This document shows, piece after piece, positions 3,901 to 47,020 of a stretch of DNA of 55,659 bases. The translations under genes were made by a program, and so were the position numbers. The DNA lies in contig CAMOYI010000038.1 in NCBI GenBank assembly GCA_946629885.1, positions 1 through 55,659 of the forward strand, written 5' to 3'. The number at the start of each line of letters is the position of its first letter. Within the stretch, counting starts at the first letter, position 1. Under the pieces are notes generated by a model. That model saw only the letters and a program-made list of their open reading frames with translations, did no database searches and was not told where the DNA came from. The stretch comes from an uncultured Mycoplasmatota bacterium. GTDB lineage: Bacteria > Bacillota_I > Bacilli_A > RF39 > UBA660.

Positions 3901-3923
3901 TTTACTCCACCTTAATCATTGTA

Positions 3924-5332: not shown

Positions 5333-5346
5333 TATAAATCCTCCAA

Positions 5347-6905: not shown

Positions 6906-7306
6906 TATTCTACTTCCTTGACGACTTTATCTAAAACTGCATTAATCATCTTTCTTACTGCATCGTCACTGTATTTTTTAGCAAGCTCAATTGCTTCATT
7001 AATTACTACTACTTTAGGAGTATCTGTATACATTATTTCATATAGAGCAAGTCTTAAAATACTTGCACCAGTTTTATCTAAACGATTTATATTCCAGTCT
7101 TTCAAATGTTTATTAGCAATTTCATTTAACTGATCGTAATATGTATTAACTCCATACACAACTTCTTTTACAAATTCATTATCTATCTCTAAGTTTTCTT
7201 TAATTACATCATCTATATTATATTCAATACCACTTTGTTTATATATATCGATTTGATATAGAATAGTCATTACTTTAACTCTCAATTCACTTCTAGTTAA
7301 TCCCAT
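6905..7306 (-). CDS. nusB: transcription antitermination factor NusB
   Basis: The sequence RSELRVKVMTILYQIDIYK...NINRLDKTGASILRLALYEIMY...PKVVVINEAIELAKKY is a typical NusB. The ATG at 7306 is preferred because AGGATG lies 8 nt upstream. The GTG at 7315 abuts that RBS. Confidence 0.9.
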   Translation of the reverse strand: MGLTRSELRVKVMTILYQIDIYKQSGIEYNIDDVIKENLEIDNEFVKEVVYGVNTYYDQLNEIANKHLKDWNINRLDKTGASILRLALYEIMYTDTPKVVVINEAIELAKKYSDDAVRKMINAVLDKVVKEVE

Positions 7307-7365
7307 ATAAATCACATCCTATTTGATTATAACAAAAAAAGACCTTTCGGTCTAGGTTAATTTTA

Positions 7366-14477: not shown

Positions 14478-15362
14478 CTATTGTTTATACAGTTTTCTTT
14501 GCCCAGTTGGTAATAATTTCAAATGATATCCGTCTTCAGCTAACTCGAGTACTGATTCACCAATACTTTCATTAATAGCTGAATCGCTTACAGTTTTCAT
14601 TGTTTTTTCAAATAATGTGGAATTAGTTGGAACACCTAATCCAAGTAGTCTTTTTTCATAATCGTCAGATGTATCATTTACACTATTGTAAAATGGGACC
14701 TCTCTATTAATAATATAGTAAAACAATGCATACATGCTTCTACAATCAAAAGACTTATTAAACACAATTCTACCCTGAGAATCGATATTATAACATTTTT
14801 TTAATCCCATAACACGCTGATAAATAAAGTTAGCATCTTGAGGCACTACATTTGGTGCATAATGTTCTGAAGAAAAAGTACTAAATTGTATATCATCTGG
14901 GTCAATTACCTTATATTCAAGTATGCCTGAATCTAGTTTAGATGTTATAAAAATATTATCTCCTTTAGCAAGATCTGGAAAAACAAATTCAGGAGCACTC
15001 ATAACCTTCTTTTCTAGATCTAAAATAAAAAAGCCAATAGTTTCCAGTTCTAGCTCACAGCCTTTTATTTTCAGATATTTATCCAAAGAGATTCCATTTA
15101 CTAATGGTAATACAGCATAAAAACTTTTTCTAGTTAATACTTCATCACTTGGTTTATATAGCTCTGATACTTCAATAGGTCTAATTTGAAAGTCAGGTAA
15201 TCCTTTTACTTCTTTAATCGCCAAAAGTTTCTTACGTAGTTCACATAATTCTTCTATATTATACCCCATTAAACCGCTTCTGTACTGTTTAACTATATGC
15301 CCAGGGTCACGTGGATCAAGATAAACCCGACAAAAATTGTTTTCTTTAAGTATTTTTGTCAA
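14478..15362 (-). CDS. divergent eukaryotic-type (Hanks) protein-kinase-like protein, possibly a pseudokinase
   Basis: The order of kinase subdomains can be traced. There is an IVKQY beta-3 Lys candidate and a hinge FYAVLPLVNGISLDKYL. FPDLAKGDNIFI sits in place of HRDLKPxNIL, VIDPDD in place of DFG, YAPNV in place of APE, and DCRSMYALFYYIINREVPFY in place of DxWSxG. The TTG at 15362 is preferred because GGGAG lies 7 nt upstream. The ORF-track start at 15380 is also TTG. Confidence 0.5.
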   Translation of the reverse strand: MTKILKENNFCRVYLDPRDPGHIVKQYRSGLMGYNIEELCELRKKLLAIKEVKGLPDFQIRPIEVSELYKPSDEVLTRKSFYAVLPLVNGISLDKYLKIKGCELELETIGFFILDLEKKVMSAPEFVFPDLAKGDNIFITSKLDSGILEYKVIDPDDIQFSTFSSEHYAPNVVPQDANFIYQRVMGLKKCYNIDSQGRIVFNKSFDCRSMYALFYYIINREVPFYNSVNDTSDDYEKRLLGLGVPTNSTLFEKTMKTVSDSAINESIGESVLELAEDGYHLKLLPTGQRKLYKQ

Positions 15363-15428
15363 CGTTTCACTCCCTTTCAAATGTATAAATTAATTATATG
15401 CATTTTTTTAATTATTTTTAGGTCATAT

Positions 15429-15545: not shown

Positions 15546-16451
15546 TCATTTTTTTAAATCTTCTTGATATAGTTTATACTGATGTTCATAATATTCTTTA
15601 GAATTATTATATTCTGTATAATCATTACTATCAATATTAAATATGCTTACTTTTCTATTATAGTATTGCTTACCCATATATATCATATCTGTAATATCAA
15701 TTCCACCATTTTTACTATATGTTAAATCAAATTTAAATATATCATCATCATAATCATATATATATGAAAAATATATTAGTCCAAATGATTTTTTTGCGTT
15801 TTCTAATTTTGTTTCTCTACCATCTACATAGGTTGGAACGCCTAAAGAATCAATTAAATCATCAATAGTAATATTATTTAAATCTACATTTTTCATGTTT
15901 GGAACTATTATATTTTTATTATCTTGAAATATTGAGCTTTGATCAAAATAAATTTCATCATTTTCATTATTTTCTGTCTCAATTAGTACTACTGAAGACA
16001 AACTATCTTGTGGATATCTTGTTCCATTTATATATACATCTATTCCTTTATAAGTTTCTGTACTTTTGCCATTATCAACTTTTACTTTCATACTATAACT
16101 ATTATTTTTAAATGTGTAATTGTTATTAGTTAAGTTTTTAATTGTTAATGGTCCTTCAATTATGTTACCAAAGAATGATATTTTTTTATCATATTTACTT
16201 TTATCAAATGCTGGAGTATAGATATTATAATAATAATCTATCGTTCTTTCTTCTTTTGGTATGCTTGACGTGTAATTGCTATAATCATTATTATTTGTTT
16301 TTGTTTCTTGTATCAGATTAGTATTAGATTTATTACTTTCGTTAGTATTATTATCTTTTGATAATAATTTAAATCCTAGAAATGCACCTATTGCAAGCAC
16401 AACTCCTATTCCTACTATAATTATTATCTTATTATTGGTTGTTTGTTCCAT
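15546..16451 (-). CDS. hypothetical N-terminally anchored extracytoplasmic protein (N/Y/K-rich)
   Basis: A single TM helix (IIIIVGIGVVLAIGAFLGF) is followed by a low-complexity linker and a beta-rich region. RBS AGAGGT. No known domain. Confidence 0.6.
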   Translation of the reverse strand: MEQTTNNKIIIIVGIGVVLAIGAFLGFKLLSKDNNTNESNKSNTNLIQETKTNNNDYSNYTSSIPKEERTIDYYYNIYTPAFDKSKYDKKISFFGNIIEGPLTIKNLTNNNYTFKNNSYSMKVKVDNGKSTETYKGIDVYINGTRYPQDSLSSVVLIETENNENDEIYFDQSSIFQDNKNIIVPNMKNVDLNNITIDDLIDSLGVPTYVDGRETKLENAKKSFGLIYFSYIYDYDDDIFKFDLTYSKNGGIDITDMIYMGKQYYNRKVSIFNIDSNDYTEYNNSKEYYEHQYKLYQEDLKK

Positions 16452-21903: not shown

Positions 21904-21920
21904 CCTTATTTGGTTGACTT
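21888..21920 (-). terminator. intrinsic terminator after the cadherin-like surface protein gene
   Basis: 9-bp stem AAGTCAACC-AAATAA-GGTTGACTT followed by ATTTCTTTT on the minus strand. Confidence 0.65.
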
Positions 21921-23256
21921 ACATATCTTTAAAGTTAAATTCCTTTGTCTTATCTAGATCCTCTTCATTTACATTTTGGATTACTTGCTTAAAAGATTCA
22001 CTATTGTATGTTTCTGTTTTATCTCCATCATATAAACCTTGCTTATTATCTTCATCTACACTAGGTTCTAAAACATTTTTTTGATCATTTATACTCGGTT
22101 CAGTACTCTTATCTTTCTTTTTCTTCCTAAATAGTAAAAATGCTACACCTGCTACTATTGCCAAAATAGCTAAAATTATTACTATTAATAGGCCTTTACT
22201 TTTCTTTTTTTCTTTTTCAACTGGAGCAACAACTTTTGTTGTAGTAGTTTCTTCTTCGACAGTAACTAATATTTCATAAGTTTGATTTTTTTCATTATCG
22301 CTAGAAGTAACTTTTATAGTTATTTTATTTTCTCCTGTTACAAACTTTTCATTGCCTTCAATCGAAATATTGGCAAGTGGATCTTCTAGTTCATAAACTA
22401 AGTCGAGACTCTCTGTACCAGCGGGTGCTAATACAGTATATTTATCATTTTTAGAATCAAATTCCGGACTCAACTTGGCATCCATTGTATTGATTTTTAA
22501 CGACTTAATAAATGCACTTGGTTCAGTTAATTTTCCTCTTGTTATTGTGACATTATAAGTCTTTTTAGTTACACCATCTTCAGCGGTTACTTCTATTGAA
22601 AAGAAATTATCACCCATATTTAAGTTTTTACTTCCAGTACCTGTTCTAGTTGCACCAGGTGCTGAAGAAGCACTAAGCCTAATAATACTTATAGTATCAG
22701 GTACTGTTACCTTGTATTCAGTAATATCCTTATTAAATGCAGGGCTCAATGTACCTTGACTAACTGTCAATTCTGTAAGCGTTGCATCGGTAGATTTTGG
22801 ACGTTCATACTTAACCGTGCCGCTTGTCGCTGATCCGTCGATAACTTCTATATTTTCACTATTTTCATCGATTTCTGAATAGAACTTTATATTTGTCGGT
22901 GTAATTGTAAATGGATCTGCCAATTGCTCTTTTGTGCTGTAATTGATAGTTCCTATTATTCCCTCTTTAAAGCCATCTGCGCTTTTGAATGTATATACAC
23001 CATTCTCACTAGAAAAACTTTGTCCAGCGTTTGGAACGACACCATCTATAGAAGCATACGCTGTACCAGACAAGCTAAGTTCAAATTTTACCATCTTATA
23101 CTTTGATAAATCTGCATCCTTTAATTCTAATGATAAACTTCTATTTCTAGCGCCTGCAGTAGTCGTATCATTTCCAACATATACAGTTGCAGCATTAACG
23201 CGATTCATCACCATCATGCAAATAATAAAAACAAATAATTTTATACTTTTTTTCAT
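21919..23256 (-). CDS. cell-surface protein with cadherin-like beta-sandwich repeats and a C-terminal TM anchor
   Basis: Signal peptide (FVFIICMMVMNRVNA), then DATLTELTVSQGTLSPAFNKDITEYKVTVP and LKINTMDAKLSPEFDSKNDKYTVLAP, the hallmark of cadherin-like beta-sandwich domains. This is followed by a TM helix (LLIVIILAILAIVAGVAFLLF) and a charged tail. Confidence 0.65.
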   Translation of the reverse strand: MKKSIKLFVFIICMMVMNRVNAATVYVGNDTTTAGARNRSLSLELKDADLSKYKMVKFELSLSGTAYASIDGVVPNAGQSFSSENGVYTFKSADGFKEGIIGTINYSTKEQLADPFTITPTNIKFYSEIDENSENIEVIDGSATSGTVKYERPKSTDATLTELTVSQGTLSPAFNKDITEYKVTVPDTISIIRLSASSAPGATRTGTGSKNLNMGDNFFSIEVTAEDGVTKKTYNVTITRGKLTEPSAFIKSLKINTMDAKLSPEFDSKNDKYTVLAPAGTESLDLVYELEDPLANISIEGNEKFVTGENKITIKVTSSDNEKNQTYEILVTVEEETTTTKVVAPVEKEKKKSKGLLIVIILAILAIVAGVAFLLFRKKKKDKSTEPSINDQKNVLEPSVDEDNKQGLYDGDKTETYNSESFKQVIQNVNEEDLDKTKEFNFKDM

Positions 23257-24458: not shown

Positions 24459-24481
24459 GAAAAAAGAGTATGCTGTTACTC
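24459..24481 (-). terminator. weak intrinsic terminator after the lipoprotein gene
   Basis: GAGTA-ACAGCA-TACTC followed by TTTTTT on the minus strand. The stem is only 5 bp. Confidence 0.35.
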
Positions 24482-25147
24482 CATATTATTTTTAAAAGTT
24501 TTAGAAATTTTATCCGCTAGTGCTATGATATCTGTATGTGCTTCTTCACTTAACGGATCATCAATAACGATAATATATATCGGATAACCTTGTATAATAG
24601 TGCAATAAAGAGCAAAATCAACTTCATCATATTTGAGTTTATATTCTTCAGATAATTTTATTTTTCCAATTATTCTATTCATTTCCCAATTATTTACATT
24701 AACAATTTTAGAACTTTCTATAGCAAATGTATATTCACTAGCGGAAATTAAACGTGTTTTAGCATTTTCTAAAATTTGTGTTTTCATTTGATCAAACACA
24801 TCTTCAATTTTGTTAATTTTATCGATATCTACGTTATATATCAATTTAGAAGCAGGATCAACATAACTATCGTAAATTATGGAATATGTTTTTTCTGCTA
24901 TTAAAAAACCAGATGCAGCTCTATGTACATTTCCGTGTGGTACATCAATACTATACTTAACATAAGGTAATGATATATTAACTGTGCTTTGAAGCTCAGG
25001 AAATACTTTTTCTGACTTTATATCTTTTTCATGATTATCATTATCTTTAATAGCGGTAGGATTAGATTTAACTTCCTTTTTTGCGGTACATGCTATAAGA
25101 CTAAATGCTGTAAGTAAAACTATTATAATCATTAATACCTTTCTCAT
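24476..25147 (-). CDS. hypothetical lipoprotein
   Basis: Signal peptide with lipobox (LLTAFSLIAC). No recognised domain. Confidence 0.65.
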   Translation of the reverse strand: MRKVLMIIIVLLTAFSLIACTAKKEVKSNPTAIKDNDNHEKDIKSEKVFPELQSTVNISLPYVKYSIDVPHGNVHRAASGFLIAEKTYSIIYDSYVDPASKLIYNVDIDKINKIEDVFDQMKTQILENAKTRLISASEYTFAIESSKIVNVNNWEMNRIIGKIKLSEEYKLKYDEVDFALYCTIIQGYPIYIIVIDDPLSEEAHTDIIALADKISKTFKNNME

Positions 25148-25223: not shown

Positions 25224-27020
25224 CTATTTATCACTTTTTAGAATACTTAGGAATGCTTCACTAGGTAACTCTACTCTACCGATGGTTTTCATTCTCTTTT
25301 TTCCTTCTTTTTGTTTTTCTAGAAGTTTCCTTTTTCTTGAGACATCTCCGCCATAACACTTAGCTAAAACATTCTTTTTCATAGCGCTGATATTTTCTCT
25401 TGCAATTACTTTAGATCCGATAGAGGCTTGAATTGGCACTTGGAATAACTGTCTAGGTATTACCTTTTTTAAATTCTCGACGATAGTTTTTCCCCTATCA
25501 TATGCAAAATCTTTGTGAACTATTACTGCTAATGCGTCGACGATTTCGCCATTTAAAAGTATATCCATCTTTACTAGATTACTTTCCCTATATCCATGAA
25601 ATTCATAATCGAATGATGCATATCCCTTCGTCGTACTTTTGAGTTTATCGAAGAAATCGTAGACTATTTCAGATAATGGCAAATAGTAGTGTATATTTAC
25701 TCTACTAGAATCGATATATTCAGTATTTTCAAATATACCTCTTTTATCTTGACAGAGATTCATAATCGCTCCGATATAATCATTTGGAACTAAAATGTTC
25801 GTCTTGATAAATGGTTCCTCTATGCTCTTGATATAGGTTCTATCTGGCATTTTATTTGGGCTATCTACTAAAATAGTTTCACCATTGGTCATATTAACTC
25901 TATAAATTACACTTGGGCTAGTTGCAATTATATCTATTCCAAATTCTCTTCTAATTCTTTCCTCTATTACGTCCATGTGAAGTAGTCCTAAAAAGCCACA
26001 ACGGAAACCAAATCCTAGCGCTGCACTATTTTCAGGTTCTATACTTAAGGCAGCATCGTTAAGTTTTAGCTTTTCTAATGCTTCTTTTAATGCTTCATAT
26101 TTATTCGGCTCTATTGGAAATAAACCGGAATAAACCATAGGCTTCATAGGTTTATAACCATCCAGCTGTACTTGAGATGGATTTCTTACGACTGTTATAG
26201 TGTCTCCAACTTTAACAGATTCTATGTCTTTTATCGCTGCAGCGATAAAACCGACTTCACCACTTACTAGTTCATCTTTATTGACCATTTTAGGAGTATT
26301 AACAAATGTTTCTACTACTTCATATTCTTCGCCTGTAGCCAAGAATCTAATTTTATCCTTAACCTTGATTGAACCATCGACTACTTTTACTGATACAATT
26401 ACACCCCTATAAGCATCATATATTGAATCAAATATTAAAGCTCTAGTTGGAGCGTTATTGTTTATCTTAGGAGCAGGCGTTCTATCTATGATTGCTTTGA
26501 TTAATTCTTCCACTCCGACACCAGTTTTACCACTACATAAAAGGATTTCATCTTCTTTAAAGCCTAATACACTCATTAATTCACTTTTTACTTTTGGAAT
26601 ATCCGCATTTGGTAAATCGATCTTATTGATAACCGGTATTATCGTTAAATCATTTTCCAGTGCTAGATACAAGTTTGCAAGCGTCTGCGCTTCTATACCT
26701 TGAGCGGCATCGACTACTAATACAGCTGCCTCACATGCTGCAAGAGAACGAGATACCTCATAAGTAAAGTCGACATGACCTGGTGTATCTATCAAATGTA
26801 ATACATATTCTTCCCCATTATAATTATATTTGAGTTCGACCGCATTGAGTTTAATAGTTATACCACGTTCACGTTCTATATCCATGCTATCTAACATTTG
26901 ACTTTTTAACTCACGTTTATCGACTGCACCTGTAATCTCTAGTATTCTATCTGCCAAAGTCGATTTTCCGTGATCAATATGTGCTATTATAGAAAAATTT
27001 CTAATATTTTCTTGCTTCAT
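25224..27020 (-). CDS. lepA: translation elongation factor 4 (LepA)
   Basis: [29 protein letters not shown] and NKIDL G-motifs plus the LepA C-terminal domain. The ATG at 27020 is 5 nt after GGTGA. The ORF-track start at 27029 is the GTG inside that RBS. Confidence 0.96.
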
Positions 27021-27037: not shown

Positions 27038-27066
27038 ATTTTAGCAGATTTGTAGAATAAAGGCAA
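27038..27066 (-). promoter_or_regulatory. sigma-A-like promoter for lepA
   Basis: Minus strand reads TTGCCT, 17 nt, TAAAAT. It lies directly after the cassette terminator. Confidence 0.45.
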
Positions 27067-27091
27067 AAAAATATACCGTTCGGCGGTATAT
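27064..27091 (-). terminator. intrinsic terminator closing the three-gene cassette
   Basis: Minus strand reads ATATACCG-CCGAA-CGGTATAT (8-bp perfect stem) followed by TTTTTTT. Confidence 0.75.
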
Positions 27092-27132
27092 TTTGTGAAT
27101 CAACATATATAATGCAAATATTAAAAAGCTTG

Positions 27133-28539
27133 CTAATAAATATCATATGGTATAATACGATACTTTCTAAATAGTGACCCTACATTCGATGGCTTAAACT
27201 GTAATATTTTTGGGCTATCAACTGGATTATCATATTCTTTAACTACGCTCATTTCATTTAGATATGCATCTATCAAGTGCACTATATTTACTGTAAATAT
27301 GTAAGCTTGTCTATCATTATCCAGCTCAACTCTAGTAGCCAATCCAGTTAAAAACGCCAATATATAGTCTATGGTGATATCATTTTTATTTTCCGTGTCG
27401 ATACAAATTTCTATCTCCATATTTTCTTGATAAAAAAATCTATCCTCCAATAAAATGTTATGCAAAAATTTGTCTATTTCCTCATCTGTGCCATTTTCTA
27501 ATTTAAATTCTATTCTGTGTCTAGCGATAAAATTACGAATAAACTCTATTATTCTGTCTTTAATCATCTGCATTTCATCGTGTATTAGGGTTGTATTTGT
27601 TAGTCCATTGCTTCGTTTTATTGCCTTACACCGCGCTTTAAATAGACATCTACTATTCTCTAAAACACGGTTAATATACTCTGCTTGTTCACTTGTAATC
27701 AAAAAACCATTTGTACTCCACTCAATTGTTGATTTGCTAATATCTTTGTAGTTGTTCGGATAAGGATATGGCAAGTGGAGTTCATACGATAAGTCCGATA
27801 ATTTGTTGAATACTTTCCACCATATGTTATGTAAGCTTTCTTCCTGTTCATTAAAACCTAACGAGCTATAAATTTTAAACATATCTTGGAAAGTGATTGA
27901 ATGCCAACACTTTTCAGCTAAAATTCTTTTTAACAACTCTTCTGCAACTTCCTTTGCCATATAGGATCTTTCACTTTCAACTGAACTATTAGCATATTTT
28001 GTATAGTGAAAATCCTCTATTAGTTGCATTAATTCATCATGTTTTCGTATTTTAGATGGTAATAAATCTTTTTCCCCCTGTATAACTATACTATCAGTTG
28101 AAATATATAAGACTCTCTTATCCCATAACATTTCATAAAATTTAATAAACGCTTCAACATATATAACTGCGTACGAAGCGTTGTAAGATTTTTTTCGGTA
28201 ATTTTCACCATGTGTTCGTCTCATGTAATCTTCCATTTTTTCATAAAGTATGAGCCCATCAAAAAGATTTAAAAAGGAAATAAGTATTTTTTGGAGAAAT
28301 TCAATATCATCAGCAAATGGAAGGTTATTTTTTTTAGCAAAACTATAAAATGATGAAAATAGTATATGAGTAAATTTATTATTGTTTGAATATTGATTAT
28401 CAATTGAACTGTTAGTCACACTTTTTATTCTATCTAATAGGGTTCCACAAAAAATATCTGGAAAAACCTCATCCATAAAATTATTTAAAAGGTTAGTTAC
28501 TTGAGCTTGATAGTCCATGGATTCTAATTTTTTTGTCAC
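27133..28539 (-). CDS. hypothetical protein C of the cassette (about 468 aa), paralog of protein B
   Basis: Long ORF. The GTG at 28539 is preferred because GAGGGA lies 7 nt upstream. The ORF-track TTG at 28554 overlaps that RBS. No TM segment, signal peptide, Walker motif or nuclease motif recognised. It shares motifs with the adjacent 28621-30054 product. Confidence 0.7.
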   Translation of the reverse strand: MTKKLESMDYQAQVTNLLNNFMDEVFPDIFCGTLLDRIKSVTNSSIDNQYSNNNKFTHILFSSFYSFAKKNNLPFADDIEFLQKILISFLNLFDGLILYEKMEDYMRRTHGENYRKKSYNASYAVIYVEAFIKFYEMLWDKRVLYISTDSIVIQGEKDLLPSKIRKHDELMQLIEDFHYTKYANSSVESERSYMAKEVAEELLKRILAEKCWHSITFQDMFKIYSSLGFNEQEESLHNIWWKVFNKLSDLSYELHLPYPYPNNYKDISKSTIEWSTNGFLITSEQAEYINRVLENSRCLFKARCKAIKRSNGLTNTTLIHDEMQMIKDRIIEFIRNFIARHRIEFKLENGTDEEIDKFLHNILLEDRFFYQENMEIEICIDTENKNDITIDYILAFLTGLATRVELDNDRQAYIFTVNIVHLIDAYLNEMSVVKEYDNPVDSPKILQFKPSNVGSLFRKYRIIPYDIY

Positions 28540-28620
28540 AAATGATTCCCTCAATTCGTATTTATCTACTATATATCTTTATCCGTCAGATGTAAATAAT
28601 ATTTTTCCCCATAAGTGTTA

Positions 28621-30054
28621 TCAACTTCTCAATCTATATTTCATTATTAGTGATTCTTTATCTTTACCATTTAATTGTAACCCAATTTTTCCATCTATCC
28701 CTGACTTTTCTCCATTCTGCTCTAGAATCAAGTCAGTAGTAGATTTAATCGCATCTAATTCACTATCTATTGCAAATGCAAGATCGACTAGGCTACAAGT
28801 ATAAGTGGTTGTTTTGTCATTAGCACTGGTTTCCGTACGTGGGACAGTTTTCATAAATTCCATTAAGTAACTATTGGATATATCTTCATTTTGTAAAATA
28901 GATACTGTAATTTTCTTTTGCAATGCATATGGATACCTACTTAGACCTTTTTTAGTTATAATACTCATAACGTCTCTTATATTTTGTGGGTATTCTTTTA
29001 ATTCAATATTTAATAATTCTACTAGCGCATCAATTAATCTCGCTAGAAGTTTATTAATCTCTCTTAATGGAATAGAAGCATCTGAGGGATTCTCTTCGAT
29101 TAAAGTTTTTCTAATAACACCTAGATTATCATAAGCTTTAAGTTTTTTTTGTGTTTCAATTAAAATATCGGTAAATACATAGCACGTTGACCCGCCAATA
29201 TGATAAATAGCTTCTTCACTTTGACCATTTCTCTGTTCAATAGGTACGCCTAAATATTTTATAGATAAGTCAGTTAAACATGTTCCTATCATCCACTTCA
29301 TATCTTGCACCCAAACTTCAAACAAATTCCTTCCTAAAGGTGGTACTTCATGTGATAGTTCACATTTTCTTTTGGCAATTTCTACCCACTTTTCATAAGG
29401 TATGATTCTTTCTTTCATCACATAGCGATATAGATTGTTCTTTGTAACTTTCCTATCTATTAAAGTACATGATTTATGTTCATCTAGATTTGGAGATAGA
29501 AAAATCTCAGATTGATTAATTGCTTCTTCTATAGTGTCTTCAAAAATACTATGGGCAATCCTTCTCGCTTCAGCTTGTTGCGAATAATATAGCGAGTATG
29601 CAGATTTTCTAATCTTTATATAATCTTCGTATAACGATAATAAATTATCGTGAATGTTTATCTGCGCGACGCTCAAATTATCTTTTTTTTCGCCTACAAT
29701 AAAACTACTATCAGAATCTAAATATACTTCCTTATCCCATACTGAAAAATAAAATATTAATATGCCATCTAAATCAAGAATTTCGATTTCATTTTTTGTG
29801 GGACTATAACGACAAGCATCCTTAAAAGAATTTATAAAGTTGCTAAGTGAGGTTCCCGATTCAAGTGTTATTATCTTATCTCTTAAAAATCTTTTTTTTA
29901 GTACGGAATAGTCTCCTTCAAACAATCCCTTAATCGAAGACTCGCCAATTGTTTTGATTTTATATCTTAATTCATCATCAAGCTGAAAAGCTACTACACT
30001 CAAAAATTCTTCAATATCTCGACTACAACATTTAGTATTATTCTTTAATTGCAT
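28621..30054 (-). CDS. hypothetical protein B of the cassette (about 477 aa), paralog of protein C
   Basis: Long ORF. The ATG at 30054 is 6 nt after GAGGA, whereas the ATG at 30060 abuts it. No known domain recognised. Confidence 0.7.
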   Translation of the reverse strand: MQLKNNTKCCSRDIEEFLSVVAFQLDDELRYKIKTIGESSIKGLFEGDYSVLKKRFLRDKIITLESGTSLSNFINSFKDACRYSPTKNEIEILDLDGILIFYFSVWDKEVYLDSDSSFIVGEKKDNLSVAQINIHDNLLSLYEDYIKIRKSAYSLYYSQQAEARRIAHSIFEDTIEEAINQSEIFLSPNLDEHKSCTLIDRKVTKNNLYRYVMKERIIPYEKWVEIAKRKCELSHEVPPLGRNLFEVWVQDMKWMIGTCLTDLSIKYLGVPIEQRNGQSEEAIYHIGGSTCYVFTDILIETQKKLKAYDNLGVIRKTLIEENPSDASIPLREINKLLARLIDALVELLNIELKEYPQNIRDVMSIITKKGLSRYPYALQKKITVSILQNEDISNSYLMEFMKTVPRTETSANDKTTTYTCSLVDLAFAIDSELDAIKSTTDLILEQNGEKSGIDGKIGLQLNGKDKESLIMKYRLRS

Positions 30055-30117
30055 TATCATTCCTCTTTCTTATATTATAGATATGAATGTGAATACAATT
30101 TTATTACATTAATATTT

Positions 30118-30846
30118 TTAATTTTCTGGATTACTTATTTGTACCAAATGGTATATTTGTTCATCTTGACCATTCTCTTTGATATATCCTTCTATATCCT
30201 TTAAAAGGTCTACTAAAGCCGATAAATTTTCCCGTTTCATTTTATATTCTATTTTTCCATCTCTAGAAAAGGTACTTGTCATTGTTACAAATGATAGAGA
30301 ACGATATAAAATAATTAAACAATCCATTATATGGGCTGTTCCGTAGTATGCATCCAGTGTATCAGTAATTAGTTCATTTTCGCTTGTATTTCTGGCGGCT
30401 AAATTAATAAGGTGGTCTTTGATAAGAGTTACAGTTTCCTTGCCAGCAAAGTAGAAATTAGTCATATCAAAAGCGTCATTGCTGGTAATATGAATCGTAG
30501 TAATCTTCATTGCCTTTATTATTCTTCTTAAATAATCTTCCTTATTTTCTGTAGTTTCGTCATTTGCAGAATTAATTATATTTATTCCTTCTTCTTTATC
30601 AAAGGTAAAGAACTGTGAAATAATCGACTCAATTTTTGCTTTAAATTCACTAAATTCTCCCTTTTCAAATAAATTTACTAATTCATTATAATCATCTAGA
30701 TGTACACCAATAGTTCTGAAAAACAACTTTAAAAGAAAGCTACCTTGTCTACACTCGTCTACCAAGTCATCGGTATATTGAATTATCCTATAAGATCTTC
30801 CTATATCATCGTAAGCTACTTCCTGTCTTCTAATCATATTTGCCAT
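30118..30846 (-). CDS. hypothetical protein A of the cassette (242 aa)
   Basis: ORF with AGGAG 10 nt upstream. Predicted soluble. No known domain recognised. Confidence 0.65.
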   Translation of the reverse strand: MANMIRRQEVAYDDIGRSYRIIQYTDDLVDECRQGSFLLKLFFRTIGVHLDDYNELVNLFEKGEFSEFKAKIESIISQFFTFDKEEGINIINSANDETTENKEDYLRRIIKAMKITTIHITSNDAFDMTNFYFAGKETVTLIKDHLINLAARNTSENELITDTLDAYYGTAHIMDCLIILYRSLSFVTMTSTFSRDGKIEYKMKRENLSALVDLLKDIEGYIKENGQDEQIYHLVQISNPEN

Positions 30847-30877
30847 AACACAACAACTCCTATTTCATTAGTTGTAT

Positions 30878-30906
30878 ATTATAATTAATCATGAGTGTTA
30901 TGTAAA
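30878..30906 (-). promoter_or_regulatory. sigma-A-like promoter for the three-gene cassette
   Basis: Minus strand reads TTTACA, 17 nt, TATAAT. The -35 element overlaps the last codons of the yqxA-like gene. Confidence 0.55.
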
Positions 30907-31224
30907 CAATTTTTTAAAAATATTTCCTATGTTTTTAATACTATCACTTAATATTTTTTCGATGCTAGAACTTATATAGTATCCTACCTTCGATGTATTA
31001 TTAGTATAGTCTTTATTTTCATCTATTAAGTAGTCATTGATATCGACTTGTTTACCATCTTTGACATCCTGTTCAAATCTTTTGATTTGATTATTTGTAA
31101 ATTCTGTTTTCTTTCTCATACTGCTATCATAATATCCAGTTTTATCTAAAATATAAAGAGATAAATATCCAATAAAAAATACTATTAATGCTATCTTTAA
31201 CCAATTGATTTTTTTCTTTTCCAT
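30898..31224 (-). CDS. YqxA-like small membrane protein (DUF3679-like)
   Basis: About 108 aa with one N-terminal TM helix. It lies immediately downstream of spoIIP, exactly where the 112-aa yqxA sits in B. subtilis. The ATG at 31224 follows GGAGGGTG. Confidence 0.55.
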   Translation of the reverse strand: MEKKKINWLKIALIVFFIGYLSLYILDKTGYYDSSMRKKTEFTNNQIKRFEQDVKDGKQVDINDYLIDENKDYTNNTSKVGYYISSSIEKILSDSIKNIGNIFKKLFT

Positions 31225-33926: not shown

Positions 33927-36900
33927 CTATTCTAATATATAGCACTTTTTATTATCAAGTTTATACTTTCCTGCTCTACAGCGATTAAGGCAATTATCCA
34001 TAGCTTCTATTTCGTCTGTATATGCAATTGTTGTGTCTATACTACAATAATGAGCTGTATCATATGATAATTGTCCGAGCGTTTCTTTTATACATTTACT
34101 ACTAATGCCACATGTTGAACTACTACATGTATAAGGACTATCACATGTATAAACATATATATCTAGAACACTTCCATAATTATATCTAGAACACTCTTCA
34201 CTTGCTTTTGCAAAAGTATCATAATATTGATCAGTCAGTGAACAATAATATTTTTTCTCTGATGTAATAGATTTTGAAACAGTCTTCTTACATGTACTAT
34301 TCTGATTACAGTTTGCTCCATCACTGCATGTGTAGCCAGAACTACATTTATATACATAATAATTTGACACAGTACCTGCAATTACACGAGAACAAGCAGT
34401 TCTTGCAGCCTCTTCTGTATCATAGCTACTGTTTGTAAGTGAACAATAATATTTATAGTTTGTTGTTGAATCCTTTTCGTCATACTTTGTACATGTGCTA
34501 TTTTGATTACAACTTGATTCATCACTGCATGTGTAGCCGGAAGGACAGCCATATGTTACATTAGTTGTAACATTTCCATTTTTAACAGTGTAGCAGTTGT
34601 CTTCAGCATCGCTATAGCTAGTATAATTGTCATTGTTCAAGCTGCACTTATATGTGTAAGTTTTATATAATTTGGCACTATCAGAAAATGAGCAGGCACT
34701 ATTTTGATTACAATCGGCACCATCACTACAAGTAAACCCACTTGGACAACCATATGTTTTAACTTCATTTATAGTTCCTGGAGTAGATTTAGTACAATTG
34801 TCGATTGCTTCAGTTTGGTTGTCATATATTTCATTATCTAGAGAACATTTCCATTTAGTTGATCCATATACTTTAGTCTGTTTAGTACAGATGCTATTTT
34901 CCTTACATGTACTACCGCTGCAAGTAAAGCCGCTTGGACAAGTATATGTAGCCGTATATTGTATAATTCCTGGTTTGTTTGCAATACAATCAGATTTAGC
35001 TTCTGATTGAGTTTCATAAACATTGTCATTTAAAGAACACTTCCAATTTGTTGCTGTCAATGGCTGCTTTGATTCCGTTTTACTACATGTGCTACTTGAA
35101 TTACAATTAGTTCCATCACTACAAGTATAGCCACTTGGACATGCATATACTGTCTTACTCACAACTGAACCTGATGTTGTTTTTTTACATTCATTTACCG
35201 CATCCTGCTGTGTATTATATATTTTGGAATTATAAGAACATGTATATGCTACTGTTCTAGTTACTGCTGTTGATTCAATTTTTGTACATTTGCTCGACGA
35301 CTTACAAGGATTAGTACTACAAGTGTAGCCACTTGGACAAGAGTATTTAGTAGTTGCAGTAGGCGAAGTCGTCTTCGTACATGTTCTTGTAGATTTTGAA
35401 GTACAAGTGGTATTTGAAGTACAAGTTTTACCTTTTACACTACTATCAGGGCAATCTGTTCTCGAGTCAGATTGAGTATATCCGCTTGGACAACTTGCTG
35501 GGCAAGAACCAGTACAATAGTATTGTCCATATGTTAAAACTGCGCTCGAATTACATGTCCATGTCTCTTTTCTGTAGTAGTTTATCGAACTACATGAATC
35601 TGTAAACTCTAGTCTAGACGAATCACCGCCGCAAACATAGTTATTCATGTCATTTATGCAATCGGTCTTAGAAGAAAAATATCTTTTTGGTGTTAATTCT
35701 CGTTCCCCTCCAGTTATACAGGCTCCTTGCCAGAAATATCTAGTATTTGTGTGAGTACATTTTGTCTTTTTCTTACCTTCTCTACCAGCTTTACAATCAT
35801 AATTCACATGTTCTTCTGAACATGATGTTTGATTGGTACTTGTCAATTTATTTCCCCAACTATAGGTATATCCAGTTATACTACAATAACTTGTATATTT
35901 ATAACTACCACTAGTAATTATTGTAGCAGTACATTTGCTTGTCGACTTACAAGGACTATCGCTACAAGTAAACCCGCTTGGGCACGAGTAAGTCGTAGTA
36001 GATACGAGGTTAGCTGTCGTATTTTTTGTACATTTGCTTGTCGATTTACAAGGATTATCACTGCAAGTAAACCCGCTTGGGCATGCGTAAACATTTGTAG
36101 TACCAATTGAACCTGTTTCAGTCTTTTGACAATTATTAGTTGCAGTTGTTTTATCATCGTAAGTCCCACTTAACTGATTACCAAAATAGCAATCATAAAC
36201 TGTCTTTTGGCTTGCTGACACTGTTGAGGTTTTACTACATGTACTATTCTGATTACAATTAGCACCATCGCTACATGTGTAACCATTTTCACAATAATAT
36301 TTGGTAAACGAAGTTACAGTACCATATTCGCTATCATTACAATATTTGAGTGCGTCTTCCTCAGTATTGTAATAGTCGACCCAAACTCCATCGATGTAAC
36401 AATTGTATTTATTTGTCTTTATTACAGGCACTGTCATTTTACAAGTACTATTTTTGTTACAATTAGTTCCTCCACTACAAGTATAGCCAGTTGGACATGA
36501 ATATATATATGATGACTCTACTGTACCTGATGTGCTTTCATTACAATAATTATTAGCATCTTCTTCTGTATCATAACTATAGACAAAGACTCCATTAATA
36601 TAACAATTATATTTAGTTGAAACGACTGTAGGCGTTGTAGTCTTAATACATGTACTATTCTGATTACAATTAGCACCATCACTGCAAGTAAATCCACTTG
36701 GACACTGATATTTATAGTTAACTGTTATTTCGCCGCTTAACTTTTTTTGACACTTGCTGATTGCTTCATCATGCGTAGTAAATGATCCTATATATTCTCC
36801 ATCTACATAACATAAATAATATGTAGAATTAACAGGTGAAGTTGTACCAGACACTTTTCTACAAGTACTAGTGGACTTACAAGGAACATCACTACAAGTA

Positions 36901-38318
36901 TAGCCAGTTGGGCATGAATACTGAGAAGTTCTAGTAACTGTACCAGATTCTGTTGTTGAACAATTTTCTACTGCCTCTGAACGGTTATCATATATTTTTT
37001 CATCTATTTCACATTTGTATTTTAGCTCGCTTAAAACATTCTCTTCTATTGTTTTAACACATTTACTTGTCGATTTGCAAGGATTCGTATTACAAGTATA
37101 ACCATCATTACAAGTGTACTTTGAAGACACCGTAATTGTACCAGATTCATAAATTGAACAATTTTTTTCTGCATCAGCATAATTATCAAATATTTCATTA
37201 GTCACGTCACACTTATATTTTTTAGTTTCTGTTGTTTCTTTTTCTTCCCTTTTTATACATTTGCTCGTAGATTTACATGGGGTTGTGTTACAAGTAAATC
37301 CATCAGAACAATAATATGTTTTTACGGTAGTTACAGTTCCACTTACAGGGTTTTCAATTATTAGTTTTCTGCTTATTTCATTAGAAATATTGCCGGCGTA
37401 ATCGAATGAGTGTACTTTTACCGTTGCATCTGTTAAATCGTTTGTAATTTTATATTTCGGATTTACAACGGGTTGTGCTTCCCCTATCTTGTAAGAATAC
37501 TTAACCCTCTCACTATAAGTATCACGAGATCCACTAAATGCTAAGTAAAAGTCGTCAGTTATTTCAATATTAGGGTCTGTCGGATTTGTCGCATCAACTT
37601 TTATATTCTTAATTACACATGATCCTTCAGTCCCATCTTCATATTTTACATAACCGTAATATGTAGATCCTGTAGTACTCGATAATGGCATCTCTCTTAA
37701 ATCGTTATACCATTTTTCTGAACTCTTACTTATGCCATATTTAACTGGGGTTACTCCTTCTTTTTTGAATACTAGAATTAATTTATTATTTTCTCCTATA
37801 TACCAACCATTAGTTCCTTCAGTTCCCTCTACAATTAAGTCGCATAGTTTATTTTCTGGTGAAATAGTATCATATGGATCAAATTCTTCACCAAAGTGAG
37901 CATCTACATCTTTTTGATCGGCATCGATAATTATTTCTATTGGTTCTTTATCAAAACACTTCGATTTATCCCTTGGGTTTGTCACTAAACATTCGTCATT
38001 ATCTTCTGGGTCATAGTATCCTAGTTCAATTAGTTCTTCTACTGTCGTATTAAACTTATATACACATTTATCTCCACTACAATCACAGTGTCCACTTGTT
38101 TCTGTACATTCTCCATACTCTTCTTTTATCTTTTCACTATTCTCTTTTGCATATTCTCTTGCCGCTTGTTCGATTAATTTTACTTTGCTGTTATATGCTC
38201 TATTATCAATTCTTCCTCTAGCACCACTTATTCCAGCGATAGCCATTGTTGCAATTAGTGTTATAATCACTAAAACTGTAATTATTTCGACAATTGTAAA
38301 TCCTTTACTATTTTTCAT
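33927..38318 (-). CDS. giant (1463 aa) type IV pilin-like protein with cysteine-rich tandem modules
   Basis: The N-terminus MKNSKG|FTIVEIITVLVIITLIATMAIAG is a class III (prepilin) signal: Gly-Phe cleavage site, Glu at +5 and a hydrophobic helix. Residues 335-1450 carry at least 15 copies of Y-x-C-P-S-G-[YF]-T-C-S-D-x(2,3)-C-x(3,4)-S-x-C. These alternate with Y-x-C-x(7,10)-[YF]-[DN]-x(3)-[ED]-A-x(3)-C units. Confidence 0.8.
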   Translation of the reverse strand: MKNSKGFTIVEIITVLVIITLIATMAIAGISGARGRIDNRAYNSKVKLIEQAAREYAKENSEKIKEEYGECTETSGHCDCSGDKCVYKFNTTVEELIELGYYDPEDNDECLVTNPRDKSKCFDKEPIEIIIDADQKDVDAHFGEEFDPYDTISPENKLCDLIVEGTEGTNGWYIGENNKLILVFKKEGVTPVKYGISKSSEKWYNDLREMPLSSTTGSTYYGYVKYEDGTEGSCVIKNIKVDATNPTDPNIEITDDFYLAFSGSRDTYSERVKYSYKIGEAQPVVNPKYKITNDLTDATVKVHSFDYAGNISNEISRKLIIENPVSGTVTTVKTYYCSDGFTCNTTPCKSTSKCIKREEKETTETKKYKCDVTNEIFDNYADAEKNCSIYESGTITVSSKYTCNDGYTCNTNPCKSTSKCVKTIEENVLSELKYKCEIDEKIYDNRSEAVENCSTTESGTVTRTSQYSCPTGYTCSDVPCKSTSTCRKVSGTTSPVNSTYYLCYVDGEYIGSFTTHDEAISKCQKKLSGEITVNYKYQCPSGFTCSDGANCNQNSTCIKTTTPTVVSTKYNCYINGVFVYSYDTEEDANNYCNESTSGTVESSYIYSCPTGYTCSGGTNCNKNSTCKMTVPVIKTNKYNCYIDGVWVDYYNTEEDALKYCNDSEYGTVTSFTKYYCENGYTCSDGANCNQNSTCSKTSTVSASQKTVYDCYFGNQLSGTYDDKTTATNNCQKTETGSIGTTNVYACPSGFTCSDNPCKSTSKCTKNTTANLVSTTTYSCPSGFTCSDSPCKSTSKCTATIITSGSYKYTSYCSITGYTYSWGNKLTSTNQTSCSEEHVNYDCKAGREGKKKTKCTHTNTRYFWQGACITGGERELTPKRYFSSKTDCINDMNNYVCGGDSSRLEFTDSCSSINYYRKETWTCNSSAVLTYGQYYCTGSCPASCPSGYTQSDSRTDCPDSSVKGKTCTSNTTCTSKSTRTCTKTTSPTATTKYSCPSGYTCSTNPCKSSSKCTKIESTAVTRTVAYTCSYNSKIYNTQQDAVNECKKTTSGSVVSKTVYACPSGYTCSDGTNCNSSSTCSKTESKQPLTATNWKCSLNDNVYETQSEAKSDCIANKPGIIQYTATYTCPSGFTCSGSTCKENSICTKQTKVYGSTKWKCSLDNEIYDNQTEAIDNCTKSTPGTINEVKTYGCPSGFTCSDGADCNQNSACSFSDSAKLYKTYTYKCSLNNDNYTSYSDAEDNCYTVKNGNVTTNVTYGCPSGYTCSDESSCNQNSTCTKYDEKDSTTNYKYYCSLTNSSYDTEEAARTACSRVIAGTVSNYYVYKCSSGYTCSDGANCNQNSTCKKTVSKSITSEKKYYCSLTDQYYDTFAKASEECSRYNYGSVLDIYVYTCDSPYTCSSSTCGISSKCIKETLGQLSYDTAHYCSIDTTIAYTDEIEAMDNCLNRCRAGKYKLDNKKCYILE
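33969..37316 (-). repeat. in-frame coding tandem repeats (33-60 codon units) inside the pilin-like gene
   Basis: The exact 20-mer CATGTACTATTCTGATTACA occurs at 34291, 36238 and 36649. Two 54-nt blocks at 35931 and 36030 are 50/54 identical with a 99-bp period. Confidence 0.85.
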
Positions 38319-38333
38319 ACTTTCACCATTTTA

Positions 38334-38362
38334 AGTATAGCATTTAAGCTGATATTTTTCAA
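38334..38362 (-). promoter_or_regulatory. sigma-A-like promoter for the pilin-like gene
   Basis: Minus strand reads TTGAAA, 17 nt, TATACT, then GGTGA and the ATG. The leader would be very short. Confidence 0.45.
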
Positions 38363-38391
38363 TAAAAAAGCTTATTTAATAAAAAGCTTAT
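38362..38391 (-). terminator. intrinsic terminator after ruvB
   Basis: Two AAGCTT palindromes form a 6-8 bp stem, followed by TTTTTATT on the minus strand. Confidence 0.5.
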
Positions 38392-40037: not shown

Positions 40038-40982
40038 TTAGTCTTTTCTCTCATGCAATTTAACTACACAAAGAAGTTTTTCTGTTATATCATCTATGCT
40101 AATTTCGTGAGTGCTTTCGTCATAACTGATAGTAACATTTTTATTACAGTGTGAAGACGAATACTCGTACTTATCATAGTCTATGTTATCTTTATCAATC
40201 GGAGTAATATCACTATAGGTATCATCTAAATATAATAATTCGATTTCCTGCTTACTAGCCTTTTTAAAATATATATCACATGCAATGTTTTTAGCATCTG
40301 TTTCAATATCTATATCATTTTTTTCTTCATTCCAAGTTATTGTTGCATCCTCTGTACAAATAGTATCGAGATACAAGTATTCTCCGTTGCTATCAGGATT
40401 ACTTAGAACTTCCACTGGGTTTGAAAGATCTTTATCTAAAAGTATAGTTCTTTTTACTAGTGGTTCTTCATAGTATCCTTCTACTATATTAGAGTATATG
40501 TCGTTATCGACATAGCCACTACTAATTGTAAAAGATACTTCTTGCTCAGTACTTGTAGCGTTATCGATTACTATTCTTATAGAAACTGATGCACCGTTAG
40601 TTCCAATGATACCATAGGTATTTGGTCTTTGATTATATGAATAATAAACTTTAACATCATCACTATTTGTTTCACAATTTAGGGCATATTTTGTATCAAT
40701 ATCATTTTTACTAGTTAAAGTAAAATTTACTATCTTTTTATCATTAGCACCAACTTTTATCGTAGTTGACTCGCTTTTATCATTTGATAATGTATAGCTT
40801 AAATCTGCTATTTTAATGTTGATGGCATTTTGCTCCTTGCTAATTACAAATGATGAGTATGTTATTCCAGTGAAAATTGTAAAAATTGCAATAAGAGAGA
40901 TGATAACAAAAAGACGCGATTGAGTTTTATCTGCGTAATTGATCTTATTGATAATTTTTTTAGTCTTTTTAAAAATTTTCAT
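40038..40982 (-). CDS. hypothetical secreted or anchored protein, N-terminus reminiscent of the TasA/camelysin (SipW-type) signal
   Basis: A basic N-terminus and TM helix are followed by GITYSSFVISKEQNAINIKIADLSYTL, which resembles the TYAxFxD...N motif of SipW-dependent signals. The rest is beta-rich and acidic. Confidence 0.4.
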   Translation of the reverse strand: MKIFKKTKKIINKINYADKTQSRLFVIISLIAIFTIFTGITYSSFVISKEQNAINIKIADLSYTLSNDKSESTTIKVGANDKKIVNFTLTSKNDIDTKYALNCETNSDDVKVYYSYNQRPNTYGIIGTNGASVSIRIVIDNATSTEQEVSFTISSGYVDNDIYSNIVEGYYEEPLVKRTILLDKDLSNPVEVLSNPDSNGEYLYLDTICTEDATITWNEEKNDIDIETDAKNIACDIYFKKASKQEIELLYLDDTYSDITPIDKDNIDYDKYEYSSSHCNKNVTISYDESTHEISIDDITEKLLCVVKLHERKD

Positions 40983-45580: not shown

Positions 45581-46804
45581 TTACTCCTCACTTTTGCAAG
45601 TATTACCTTGCCACTTGTTTGGTTCATATACTGCACCTACAAATAGCATTTCTCCAGAATTTTTTTCTCTAATTATATACATAAATGGTTTATCAAAAGC
45701 CATATTTATCTCTTTTTTTTCTTGTACCACCATAGATTTTTCTAGTAAACCAAAATATGTAACCGCTGCTGCCTTTGTGCCATTTTCACTCAAGTCAATG
45801 TGTGTCTTATGTACAGCTTCACCAACGTATATTTCCTTTTCAGTAATATTTTTAAAATTCGCACTTTCCGTAAACGCAGCTTTAATTCCCATAGCATTTA
45901 ATACCCCAATAAAATCATCGATTGTATAATCATATTCAAATCTCGGAAGCATTAAATTCAATCTTTCGTTATTTTTTAAACTTGTTCTCGAGTCAATAAT
46001 CTTTGAAATGTCATCTTCAGTTAGATTATCTATGTAGTCATTTAAGCTCTTTTCTGGCATTAATCCTATAAATTCTAGGTTTATATTTTCACCTTTAACA
46101 TCACTATAAGTCTTATATGGTAATACAATTCCTTTAACTCCATCTAAATCGATATATTCAATTTCGTCAAATGCTTTATTCATTCCCTCGACATATACTA
46201 CTCCAGTTGGCGAATTAAATTTTTCCTTGCTCGTCATATTGCATTCAAACTTATATTGCCATTCGACATCTATTGCAAGCGCATTTGATAATCCAACAAC
46301 AAAATTAGGATTGATAGAATCTAGTATTTTATTAATCATATGTTTAGTTTTCTCATCTACCCATTTGTTAATCATATCAGGTGTTTTAAAACTATCATAA
46401 ATTATTTCGCTTGCATACTTACTCTTCATGTCGTTAACAAAACTTTTCTTGATGCTATTTGAATATGTATCCTTAATAAATAATGCGTTTGCAACAGAAA
46501 TATGGTCTTTTACATCCAACAGTTTAATGCTTCTATTTGGAATGATATCAGACAATTCTTTATGAGTATTACCACTTGAACCGTCTTTTAACATAGATAG
46601 CGCTATTTCAATTGAATATGGACTAATCAAGTAATTGGTTTTTTTATTTTTATTTACTTCTTTTATAAGTCGAAGATTAAAATTGGAATTGTCTTGTCTT
46701 ACTTTTTCATACTTTTCTATACTATCCATTTTTTTATTAATTAGGAATAACGCTCCCGCAAGGACGAGAATAATAATGATCATGTTTAATAAGTTTTTTT
46801 TCAT
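45581..46804 (-). CDS. serpin-family protease inhibitor with N-terminal signal anchor
   Basis: About 407 aa. NYLISPYSIEIALSMLKDGSSGNT is the serpin N-terminal motif. The hinge ENGTKAAAVTYF and the C-terminal FDKPFMYIIRE...LFVGAVYEP are typical of inhibitory serpins. The ATG at 46804 follows AAAGGAG. Confidence 0.85.
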   Translation of the reverse strand: MKKNLLNMIIIILVLAGALFLINKKMDSIEKYEKVRQDNSNFNLRLIKEVNKNKKTNYLISPYSIEIALSMLKDGSSGNTHKELSDIIPNRSIKLLDVKDHISVANALFIKDTYSNSIKKSFVNDMKSKYASEIIYDSFKTPDMINKWVDEKTKHMINKILDSINPNFVVGLSNALAIDVEWQYKFECNMTSKEKFNSPTGVVYVEGMNKAFDEIEYIDLDGVKGIVLPYKTYSDVKGENINLEFIGLMPEKSLNDYIDNLTEDDISKIIDSRTSLKNNERLNLMLPRFEYDYTIDDFIGVLNAMGIKAAFTESANFKNITEKEIYVGEAVHKTHIDLSENGTKAAAVTYFGLLEKSMVVQEKKEINMAFDKPFMYIIREKNSGEMLFVGAVYEPNKWQGNTCKSEE

Positions 46805-46819
46805 ATAACCAACTCCTTT

Positions 46820-47020
46820 AAAAAAAGAGCTATAATACAAGGACGATTTTGTCGTGGTACCACCTTGCTTTATAACTCTACTAGTTAACTTATTTTACTT
46901 AACGCGTAATGCTCGATCTTTCTCATTCTGCAACATTCCCTAGATATACTAATTAGTTTACACCAACCACTAACTCTCTATGTAGCACTCTCTAAGTACT
47001 CCTCAGAACTCCTCAAAAGT
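46820..47020 (-). promoter_or_regulatory. T-box leader RNA, candidate Val (GUU) specifier
   Basis: The minus strand contains AGUA and AGAGAG elements. A distal hairpin UUAGU-GGUUGGUGUAA-ACUAA follows. Next comes GAA-U-GUU-G (GUU at 46932-46934), then the T-box core AAGGUGGUACCACG (46853-46866). AAGG[UGGUACC]ACGA-CAAAA-UCGU-CCUU forms the bulged helix. A U-run (46820-46825) precedes the serpin RBS. Confidence 0.7.

Follow-up and report, generated by a model that had tools for sequence, protein, structure and literature searches.

Variable hotspots and defence islands situated between core genes of bacterial chromosomes are a general concept from studies of the pan-immune system, and at certain other loci, such as hsdS of the Type I restriction-modification systems and the comQXP pherotype loci of Bacillus, alleles are replaced and kept polymorphic by recombination in the flanks. 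In Bacillus subtilis, the gene order relevant to the present study is rpsT / (gpr) spoIIP-yqxA-lepA-hemN. A stretch of 55,659 nt (contig CAMOYI010000038.1, hereafter the window) from an uncultured Bacilli lineage found in gut and rumen metagenomes was examined here, and it holds rpsT, SpoIIP (PF07454, E 4e-50), LepA, and a HemW/HemN-like radical-SAM protein in the same order. As with yqxA, a small protein with one transmembrane (TM) helix follows spoIIP; it matches no Pfam family and is called yqxA-like by position and size only. Unlike B. subtilis, the window has no gpr visible between rpsT and spoIIP, has a 223-aa lipoprotein-like open reading frame (ORF) between lepA and hemW, and carries a cassette of about 3.9 kb, with three genes termed A, B, and C, between the yqxA-like gene and lepA. 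This cassette was compared with related loci (designated L0xx) and related proteins (designated P00xx).

The comparison indicates that the region is a lineage-restricted hypervariable locus and not a fixed three-part machine. The yqxA-lepA interval offers up to two predicted expression slots, each with a sigma-A-type promoter and a terminator, and these are filled by members of an apparently new, soluble, and probably cytoplasmic protein family, which is built of two modules and, as far as the sequences reveal, is confined to one chromosomal junction in a narrow clade. Alignments revealed turnover by several modes: nucleotide homology is lost at the stop codon of yqxA and at the terminator between genes, and mosaic divergence, fusion or fission of modules, nonsense mutation, and microhomology-mediated deletion also occur; long open frames and predicted expression signals are maintained despite this turnover. 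Like a defence island, the locus occupies a constant site flanked by conserved genes, with a content that differs among close relatives and even within a species, has autonomous promoters and terminators, and in L041 lies near conflict-type genes (Fic, RhuM, LDcluster4). Unlike a defence island, its sibling slots hold divergent alleles of one family instead of unrelated known systems, it has neither a PADLOC match nor mobile-element genes, and the family was seen nowhere else. By analogy with hsdS and comQXP, it has sharp breakpoints at gene borders, deeply divergent alleles within a species, and mosaicism, but it bears no sequence or domain relationship to them, has no methylase, restriction, or signalling partner genes, and encodes proteins that are large and soluble.

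In the window, gene A (30118-30846) encodes an acidic, soluble protein of 242 aa with an isoelectric point (pI) of 4.8, gene B (28621-30054) encodes a B-type member of the new family of 477 aa, and gene C (27133-28539) encodes a C-type member of 468 aa from a GTG start. According to the ORF list, all three have the same orientation (minus strand) and lie between the yqxA-like gene (30898-31224, minus strand; 108 aa, with its TM helix at the N-terminus), which forms the conserved upstream flank, and lepA (25224-27020, minus strand) downstream. Alternative starts are an ATG at 30060 for B (479 aa) and a TTG at 28554 for C (473 aa); the shorter forms were preferred because of the Shine-Dalgarno spacing. 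An independent gene call at the same locus in another assembly returned 242, 477, and 468 aa, in agreement with the three co-directional ORFs proposed in an earlier note on this DNA. By our own arithmetic, a random open frame of 468 codons has a probability of ~1e-17 at 30% GC and ~0.08 stops per codon. A motif scan of A, B, and C detected no TM segment, signal peptide, Walker, HxH, DEAD, or CxxC motif, and the earlier description of them as motif-less soluble proteins was thereby confirmed. Loose pattern matches in the cassette proteins were not kept among relatives, and A and all members of the family are soluble, have an acidic to neutral pI, and are without a conserved catalytic-type motif.

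A sharp contrast between cassette and flank was found among L041, L042, and L002, which belong to the same species. Their upstream 3.9 kb has 98.4-99.1% nucleotide identity, and this homology stops no more than 3 nt from the yqxA stop codon. Between L041 and L042, homology returns at the terminator after the first gene (gene 1), where identity is only 88.7%; their gene-1 products could be aligned over 76 aa only, with 28% identity, and L002 starts a third gene-1 allele. The presence of non-homologous gene-1 alleles in near-identical flanks implies import and the maintenance of old allele classes. The second gene (gene 2) of L041 and L042 is a mosaic, with identity ranging from 56 to 100% per 100 nt and indels that are all multiples of three. 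The ratio of nonsynonymous to synonymous substitution rates (dN/dS) for gene 2 was 0.69 at a dS of 0.19, compared with ratios of 0.04-0.24 and a dS of 0.02-0.08 for the flanking genes. The pair of ORFs of 195 and 397 aa in L041 corresponds to a 614-aa gene broken by one TAG (6525-6527), at which homologs carry Tyr. This gene is intact in L052 and L042, and the TAG, which is present in the L041 strain only, could represent a recent pseudogene or a sequencing error.

Variation was also observed within the species to which the window belongs. Strain L047 has lost a segment of 1,038 bp (27116..28153, minus strand) that is flanked by 13-nt direct repeats (TTATATATGTTGA). C is thereby cut short after residue 128, and A and B are intact. 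Between strains of this species, B shows 6.5 nonsynonymous and 0.5 synonymous differences, and LepA shows 3 and 22, respectively. A comparison of two assemblies of one sample identified a variable patch in A (aa 43-72; 30633..30719, minus strand) with 11 substitutions in 87 nt and 9 amino-acid changes, and the substitutions are of mixed types (T>C, A>C, A>G, G>A, and T>G). In the same two assemblies, lepA differs at 14 positions, all of which are silent, and LepA is 100% identical. The lepA differences between these two assemblies, the window and L001, fall into two tight clusters, at 26034-26094 (nine) and 26772-26814 (five), and these resemble short recombination tracts or the outcome of a strain mixture.

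The content of the yqxA-lepA interval differs among the window, L039, L040, L041, L042, L002, and L003, and the number of cassette genes ranges from one (on a short contig) to three. L039 has a gene for a 325-aa protein followed by that for P0010, which is C-like with 34% identity; L041 has P0012 followed by the 195- and 397-aa ORFs; and L042-L044 have a B-like protein of 611 aa followed by P0014 (614 aa). In L040, P0011 is located directly before lepA and the upstream side is outside the assembly, and in L052, of which only the lepA side is seen, a P0012-type fragment precedes the intact 614-aa gene. All members with assembled flanks sit between yqxA and lepA in sibling species, in which LepA is 97-99% identical and SpoIIP and YqxA are approximately 70-80% identical. 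By these comparisons, the interval has the character of a variable hotspot, that is, a fixed site with a content that differs among close relatives. The possibility raised in the earlier note that A, B, and C might be ordinary core genes universally present at this junction does not agree with a content that varies both between and within species. In L003, a more distant relative, the region between yqxA and lepA (3036-7849) is occupied by unrelated cargo that was read from the translations without profile scanning as phosphoesterase-like, HAD hydrolase-like, and sortase-like proteins and an 857-aa LPXTG-type surface protein. Profile scans of the cargo, or for L003 reading of the translations, revealed no recognisable genes for defence or of mobile elements inside the yqxA-lepA interval.

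The wider setting of the locus qualifies the earlier statement that the cassette is wedged into a conserved spoIIP-yqxA/lepA-hemW block. The block that is conserved across 37 related loci consists of a transglutaminase-like gene, rpsT, spoIIP, and the yqxA-like gene. In approximately 30 related genomes, the genes after yqxA are UPF0029 and uvrC, RNase Y, or QueH, with no lepA within 10 kb, and the cassette is therefore an insertion relative to B. subtilis only, since most relatives lack the yqxA-lepA adjacency altogether. The nearest species representative is the metagenome-assembled genome RUG11867, which is labelled Erysipelotrichaceae and has a SpoIIP that is 70% identical. Exact matches to the yqxA and rpsT products of the window were limited to the same two strains, and a scan of JGI metagenome contigs seeded on yqxA yielded one distant, uninformative locus. 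Just after lepA in L041 (9725-12633), there are genes for Fic, a metallophosphoesterase, RhuM, and LDcluster4; at the same spot, the window has the 223-aa lipoprotein-like ORF and hemW. This post-lepA position thus appears from the gene content to be a second variable spot, with conflict-type cargo in L041.

B and C aligned with each other over approximately 390 residues in a BLASTP comparison, with 20% identity and an E value of 5e-6, and on this basis they are considered to be distant paralogs of one new family and not two of three separate, unrelated proteins as had been supposed. A word-indexed search of 5.8 billion proteins with A and B as queries retrieved only the queries themselves. 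Exhaustive HMMER searching of 1.84 billion representative proteins with a profile of B and C retrieved three further relatives only, namely P0010 (493 aa, E 2e-43), P0011 (631 aa, E 4.5e-9), and P0012 (639 aa, E 1e-4), and P0013 and P0014 were added by a word-indexed search with the family profile. Each allele of the family has been sampled on one to three contigs only, and the family hidden Markov model detected no further copies in the window or in 50 loci. The closest relative of B is the 611-aa protein of L042, with 24% identity over 352 aa.

Members of the family have a body of approximately 450 aa, with or without an N-terminal module of approximately 180 aa that starts with MPYxTPTQAV. 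The body contains the motifs LNxFxxxFP and FIxFYxxxWDK, and C-type members end in a basic C-terminal tail, SLF(K/R)KY(K/R)I, also given as SLFKKYKIxxY. The SLF of this tail may resemble clamp-binding motifs. Assignment of the tail as an amphipathic membrane anchor was rejected on account of low hydrophobic moments (0.13-0.46). The only invariant columns across the family are M, L, F, and L; divergence is spread along the whole protein, with the extreme C-terminus being best conserved, and at identities of 20-35% frames of 468-639 aa have stayed open in a genome of 30% GC. Word-indexed searching and jackhmmer found no relatives of A outside the species of the window, and A was unrelated to either the N-module or the body of the family by hhalign. 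The interpretation of A as a detached N-module was likewise rejected (hhalign probability 0.2%, with jackhmmer also negative), and A is, by these searches, a species-specific orphan gene added to the locus.

Profile searches of A, B, and C against Pfam, NCBIfam, PADLOC, and PHROGs returned nothing at or near the curated thresholds, and against PADLOC-DB v2 there were no families at E<=1. Relatives were scanned with the same libraries (seven proteins for Pfam, six for PADLOC, and eight family-body members for NCBIfam and PHROGs), and no family was common to more than one member; the sole PADLOC match among the six relatives was that of P0014 to PDC-S55, with an E value of 0.00099 over 36 residues. 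Searches of the PDB by sequence, using single proteins and profiles, gave nothing below an E value of 0.07. An AlphaFold model of C, based on an alignment of seven sequences, had a predicted local distance difference test score (pLDDT) of 75.8 and a predicted template-modelling score (pTM) of 0.60, and displayed a mixed alpha/beta fold with two helices of more than 40 residues each. Using E<=0.001 or a template-modelling score (TM-score) >=0.5 as the match criterion, Foldseek found no neighbour for this model; the best E values were 0.33 against the PDB and 0.079 against the predicted viral structures of BFVD, with TM-scores of <=0.15 for the best matches and TMq <=0.17. Single-sequence modelling of A gave no usable structure (pLDDT 40), and the Foldseek matches of this model are meaningless. 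By all tests made, including the comparison of the predicted C fold with PDB and BFVD, the family appears to be unrelated to known families, defence systems, and folds; the proteins can thus be regarded as undescribed, as suggested earlier, and no characterised family accounted for all three in the profile searches or the fold search with the C model. The lack of a known domain does not, however, mark the cassette out as a special system, because at least five other ORFs of the window are also without a Pfam match and domain absence is therefore common in this genome. These five ORFs, of 223-771 aa, are located at 7366-9681, 14478-15380, 15546-16451, 40038-40982, and 24476-25147, and include two adjacent ones of approximately 300 aa that are unrelated to each other. 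A literature search for yqxA together with spoIIP, and for a hotspot at lepA, found nothing relevant.

Residues 88-145 of A gave a weak local match to PF19810 (HFX_2341_N; E 0.0017, 19.2 bits, compared with a curated cutoff of 30 bits), a domain from the N-terminus of a haloarchaeal protein that represses cas genes (PMC11434293). This match was not treated as family membership, as it is sub-threshold, is limited to a short segment that was modelled with low confidence, and is supported by no other search.

The regulatory signals of the cassette were located on the minus strand. The cassette promoter, TTTACA-17-TATAAT (30878..30906), is of the sigma-70 type, matches at 11 of 12 positions, and has a -35 element that overlaps the last codons and the stop codon of the yqxA-like gene. 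In a scan of 10 kb, its score was the joint best among the sites listed; promoter-like sites as such were not enriched (67 found vs 61.4 +/- 7.3 expected in shuffles). The promoter is taken as real because it is conserved across five sibling loci, with TTTAC(A/T)-17-TA(T/G)AAT kept before the first gene in the window, L041, L042, L039, and L002 and a spacer that varies. An intrinsic terminator with an 11-pair stem, a 5-nt loop, and a T-run (27068..27094) follows C; counterpart hairpins are present upstream of lepA in L041, L042, and L040, and a shorter hairpin-like inverted repeat with a T-run precedes lepA in L039. The separate promoter of lepA, TTGCCT-17-TG-n-TAAAAT (27038..27066), is TG-extended and is conserved in the siblings. 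All three of these signals had been proposed in the earlier note and stand, and the idea of a self-contained transcription unit stands in part: the cassette has its own promoter and terminator, but C is preceded by a promoter-like site, TTTACA-17-TATAGT (28568..28596; 10 of 12 positions), and no terminator was found between the yqxA-like gene and A. In L041 and L042, an extra terminator and promoter separate the two genes. Given these predicted sigma-A-type signals, each gene can form its own transcription unit, and the regulatory DNA is kept while the coding DNA turns over.

Several known system classes were considered and set aside. A diversity-generating retroelement was rejected because there was no reverse transcriptase among 29 window proteins, no template/variable repeat pair, and no adenine bias. 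A toxin-antitoxin module did not fit proteins of 242-639 aa, the loss of most of C in L047 with A and B intact, or the nonsense codon in gene 2 of L041. The polymorphic toxin classes (LXG/type VII secretion, Rhs, and contact-dependent inhibition) were rejected because no LXG, WXG, Rhs, or toxin domain was found and the C-terminus is the best conserved part. A known anti-phage system was rejected for lack of a significant component match in PADLOC-DB v2.

The most plausible function of the locus, although one that we propose only tentatively, is conflict with phages or mobile elements or some other form of self/non-self discrimination. Whole alleles would be replaced by homologous recombination in the conserved flanks, and wholesale exchange between strains is frequent among genes that take part in conflict with viruses. 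The products would be binding, recognition, or structural proteins and not enzymes, since the family has no invariant polar residue. Their variable surfaces may be under diversifying or frequency-dependent selection, as are those of anti-phage or anti-mobile-element sensors and of self/non-self recognition proteins, and the conserved core FIxFYxxxWDK together with the basic, apparently flexible C-terminal tail might supply the shared fold and a site at which a conserved host partner docks. A fuller proposal, that these are stand-alone, non-enzymatic recognition proteins with a new fold, acting in an immune or self/non-self system in which whole-allele swaps, by recombination in the conserved flanks with their promoter and terminator, change the specificity and the tail couples recognition to a host partner, is unlikely to hold as a whole. 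Several points weigh against a role in conflict. Known defence systems usually spread horizontally over wide taxa, and the present family occupies a single locus within a single narrow clade. The substitutions are few (7 in B and 11 in A), and dN/dS values from 0.7 to ~1, one deletion, and one nonsense allele also fit relaxed constraint. Apart from the short alignment of P0014 noted above, no member has an effector domain or a PADLOC, Pfam, NCBIfam, or PHROGs match, and a remote relationship may have been missed, as the folds were compared with PDB and BFVD only and the C model rests on seven sequences. Were the conflict reading true, the locus would be defence-like with a fold that has no known relative, would be independent of recognisable effector chemistry, and would diversify as cassettes replace one another at one fixed position in the chromosome, which would make it a new entry among bacterial immune strategies from poorly studied uncultured gut and rumen Bacilli. 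Even with a mundane function, the locus is a clean case of localised turnover, with 28% vs 99% identity across a boundary <=3 nt from a stop codon, and the family makes a well-defined subject for structural work. The present impact of the locus is limited by the narrow host range. Orphan genes are common in uncultured lineages.

The main rival explanation, which we consider somewhat unlikely, is that the genes encode lineage-specific accessory proteins under relaxed constraint with no role in conflict, which would be dispensable and fast-drifting proteins of a structural, scaffolding, or regulatory kind, shuffled by recombination and lost now and then. A dN/dS near 1 in parts of gene 2, the deletion of C in L047 and the nonsense codon in L041, the very narrow taxonomic range, the lack of an effector or known defence domain, and the occurrence of several other Pfam-less ORFs in the window would all be expected of such genes. 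Drift alone would nevertheless hardly produce three non-homologous gene-1 alleles with sharp breakpoints in flanks that are 98-99% identical, and the preservation of long frames and of in-frame indels, as well as the conservation of promoters, terminators, and the C-terminal tail, argue for maintained function. That the proteins are linked to sporulation, being made in the mother cell (hence the lack of a signal peptide) and placed on the spore surface, where exposure to phages or host immunity drives diversification, is a good deal less probable. In favour of this, spoIIP and the yqxA-like gene are situated immediately upstream and are not separated from the locus by a terminator; read-through from spoIIP-yqxA would add expression at the time of sporulation. 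The proteins are also without enzymatic residues, and hypervariability is typical of exposed structural proteins. The conserved promoter, however, is of the sigma-A type and not of the sigma-E or sigma-K type, which renders the sporulation link suggested earlier weak, and the proteins have no Cys/Tyr/Gly-rich or collagen-like composition. Adjacency to spoIIP itself says little about function, since housekeeping genes follow yqxA in most relatives.

The version put forward in the earlier note, in which A, B, and C are components of one obligate, co-transcribed multi-protein system, is improbable. The genes are indeed co-directional and tightly spaced, with one strong promoter upstream and one strong terminator downstream, and all three are retained at 96-100% identity in two assemblies. 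A single three-gene system or complex is contradicted, however, by the paralogy of B and C, by the restriction of A to one species with no counterpart in any sibling locus, and by a gene number that varies from one to three, with siblings that carry two genes, or one on a short contig, and with separate terminators and promoters for the genes of L041 and L042; moreover, L047 retains A and B after losing most of C. Least probable of all, to the point of being highly doubtful, is that the cassette derives from a mobile element such as a prophage, an integrative and conjugative element, or a transposon, either as a remnant or as cargo. Such an origin would account for the extra DNA compared with the gene order of B. 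subtilis and for the different cargo at the site in L003, and it was rejected because no integrase or transposase was present in the scanned nearby ORFs, the window contains no tRNA, and neither direct nor inverted repeats flank the cassette, the GC content of which equals that of its flanks. In addition, tblastn against 50,697 phage records and searches of IMG/VR and PHROGs found no relatives (a plasmid collection was not searched), and the family occurs only at this chromosomal junction. The preferred reading remains that of a hypervariable locus filled by alleles of one family.

The rest of the window is ordinary core chromosome, with ruvAB, obg, valS, ftsK, mltG, and xseA, and has no Rfam match. 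A bacterial serpin (PF00079, E 6e-67; 45581-46840, minus strand) adjoins valS. A 445-aa protein encoded between hemW and rpsP (21919-23256, minus strand) combines a signal peptide and a C-terminal TM anchor with two cadherin-like beta-sandwich domains. A 1463-aa protein (33927-38318, minus strand) has a prepilin methylation motif (PF07963) at its N-terminus and many Cys-rich 'CPSG(F/Y)TCSD...STC' units. In L048 (11687-19843), an ENA scaffold from the same sample, two extra genes (141 and 1070 aa, ~3.8 kb) are located between the 1463-aa gene and ruvB. The region 37476-38378 of the window matches the N-terminal regions of both large L048 genes, which suggests recombination or an assembly collapse between paralogs.

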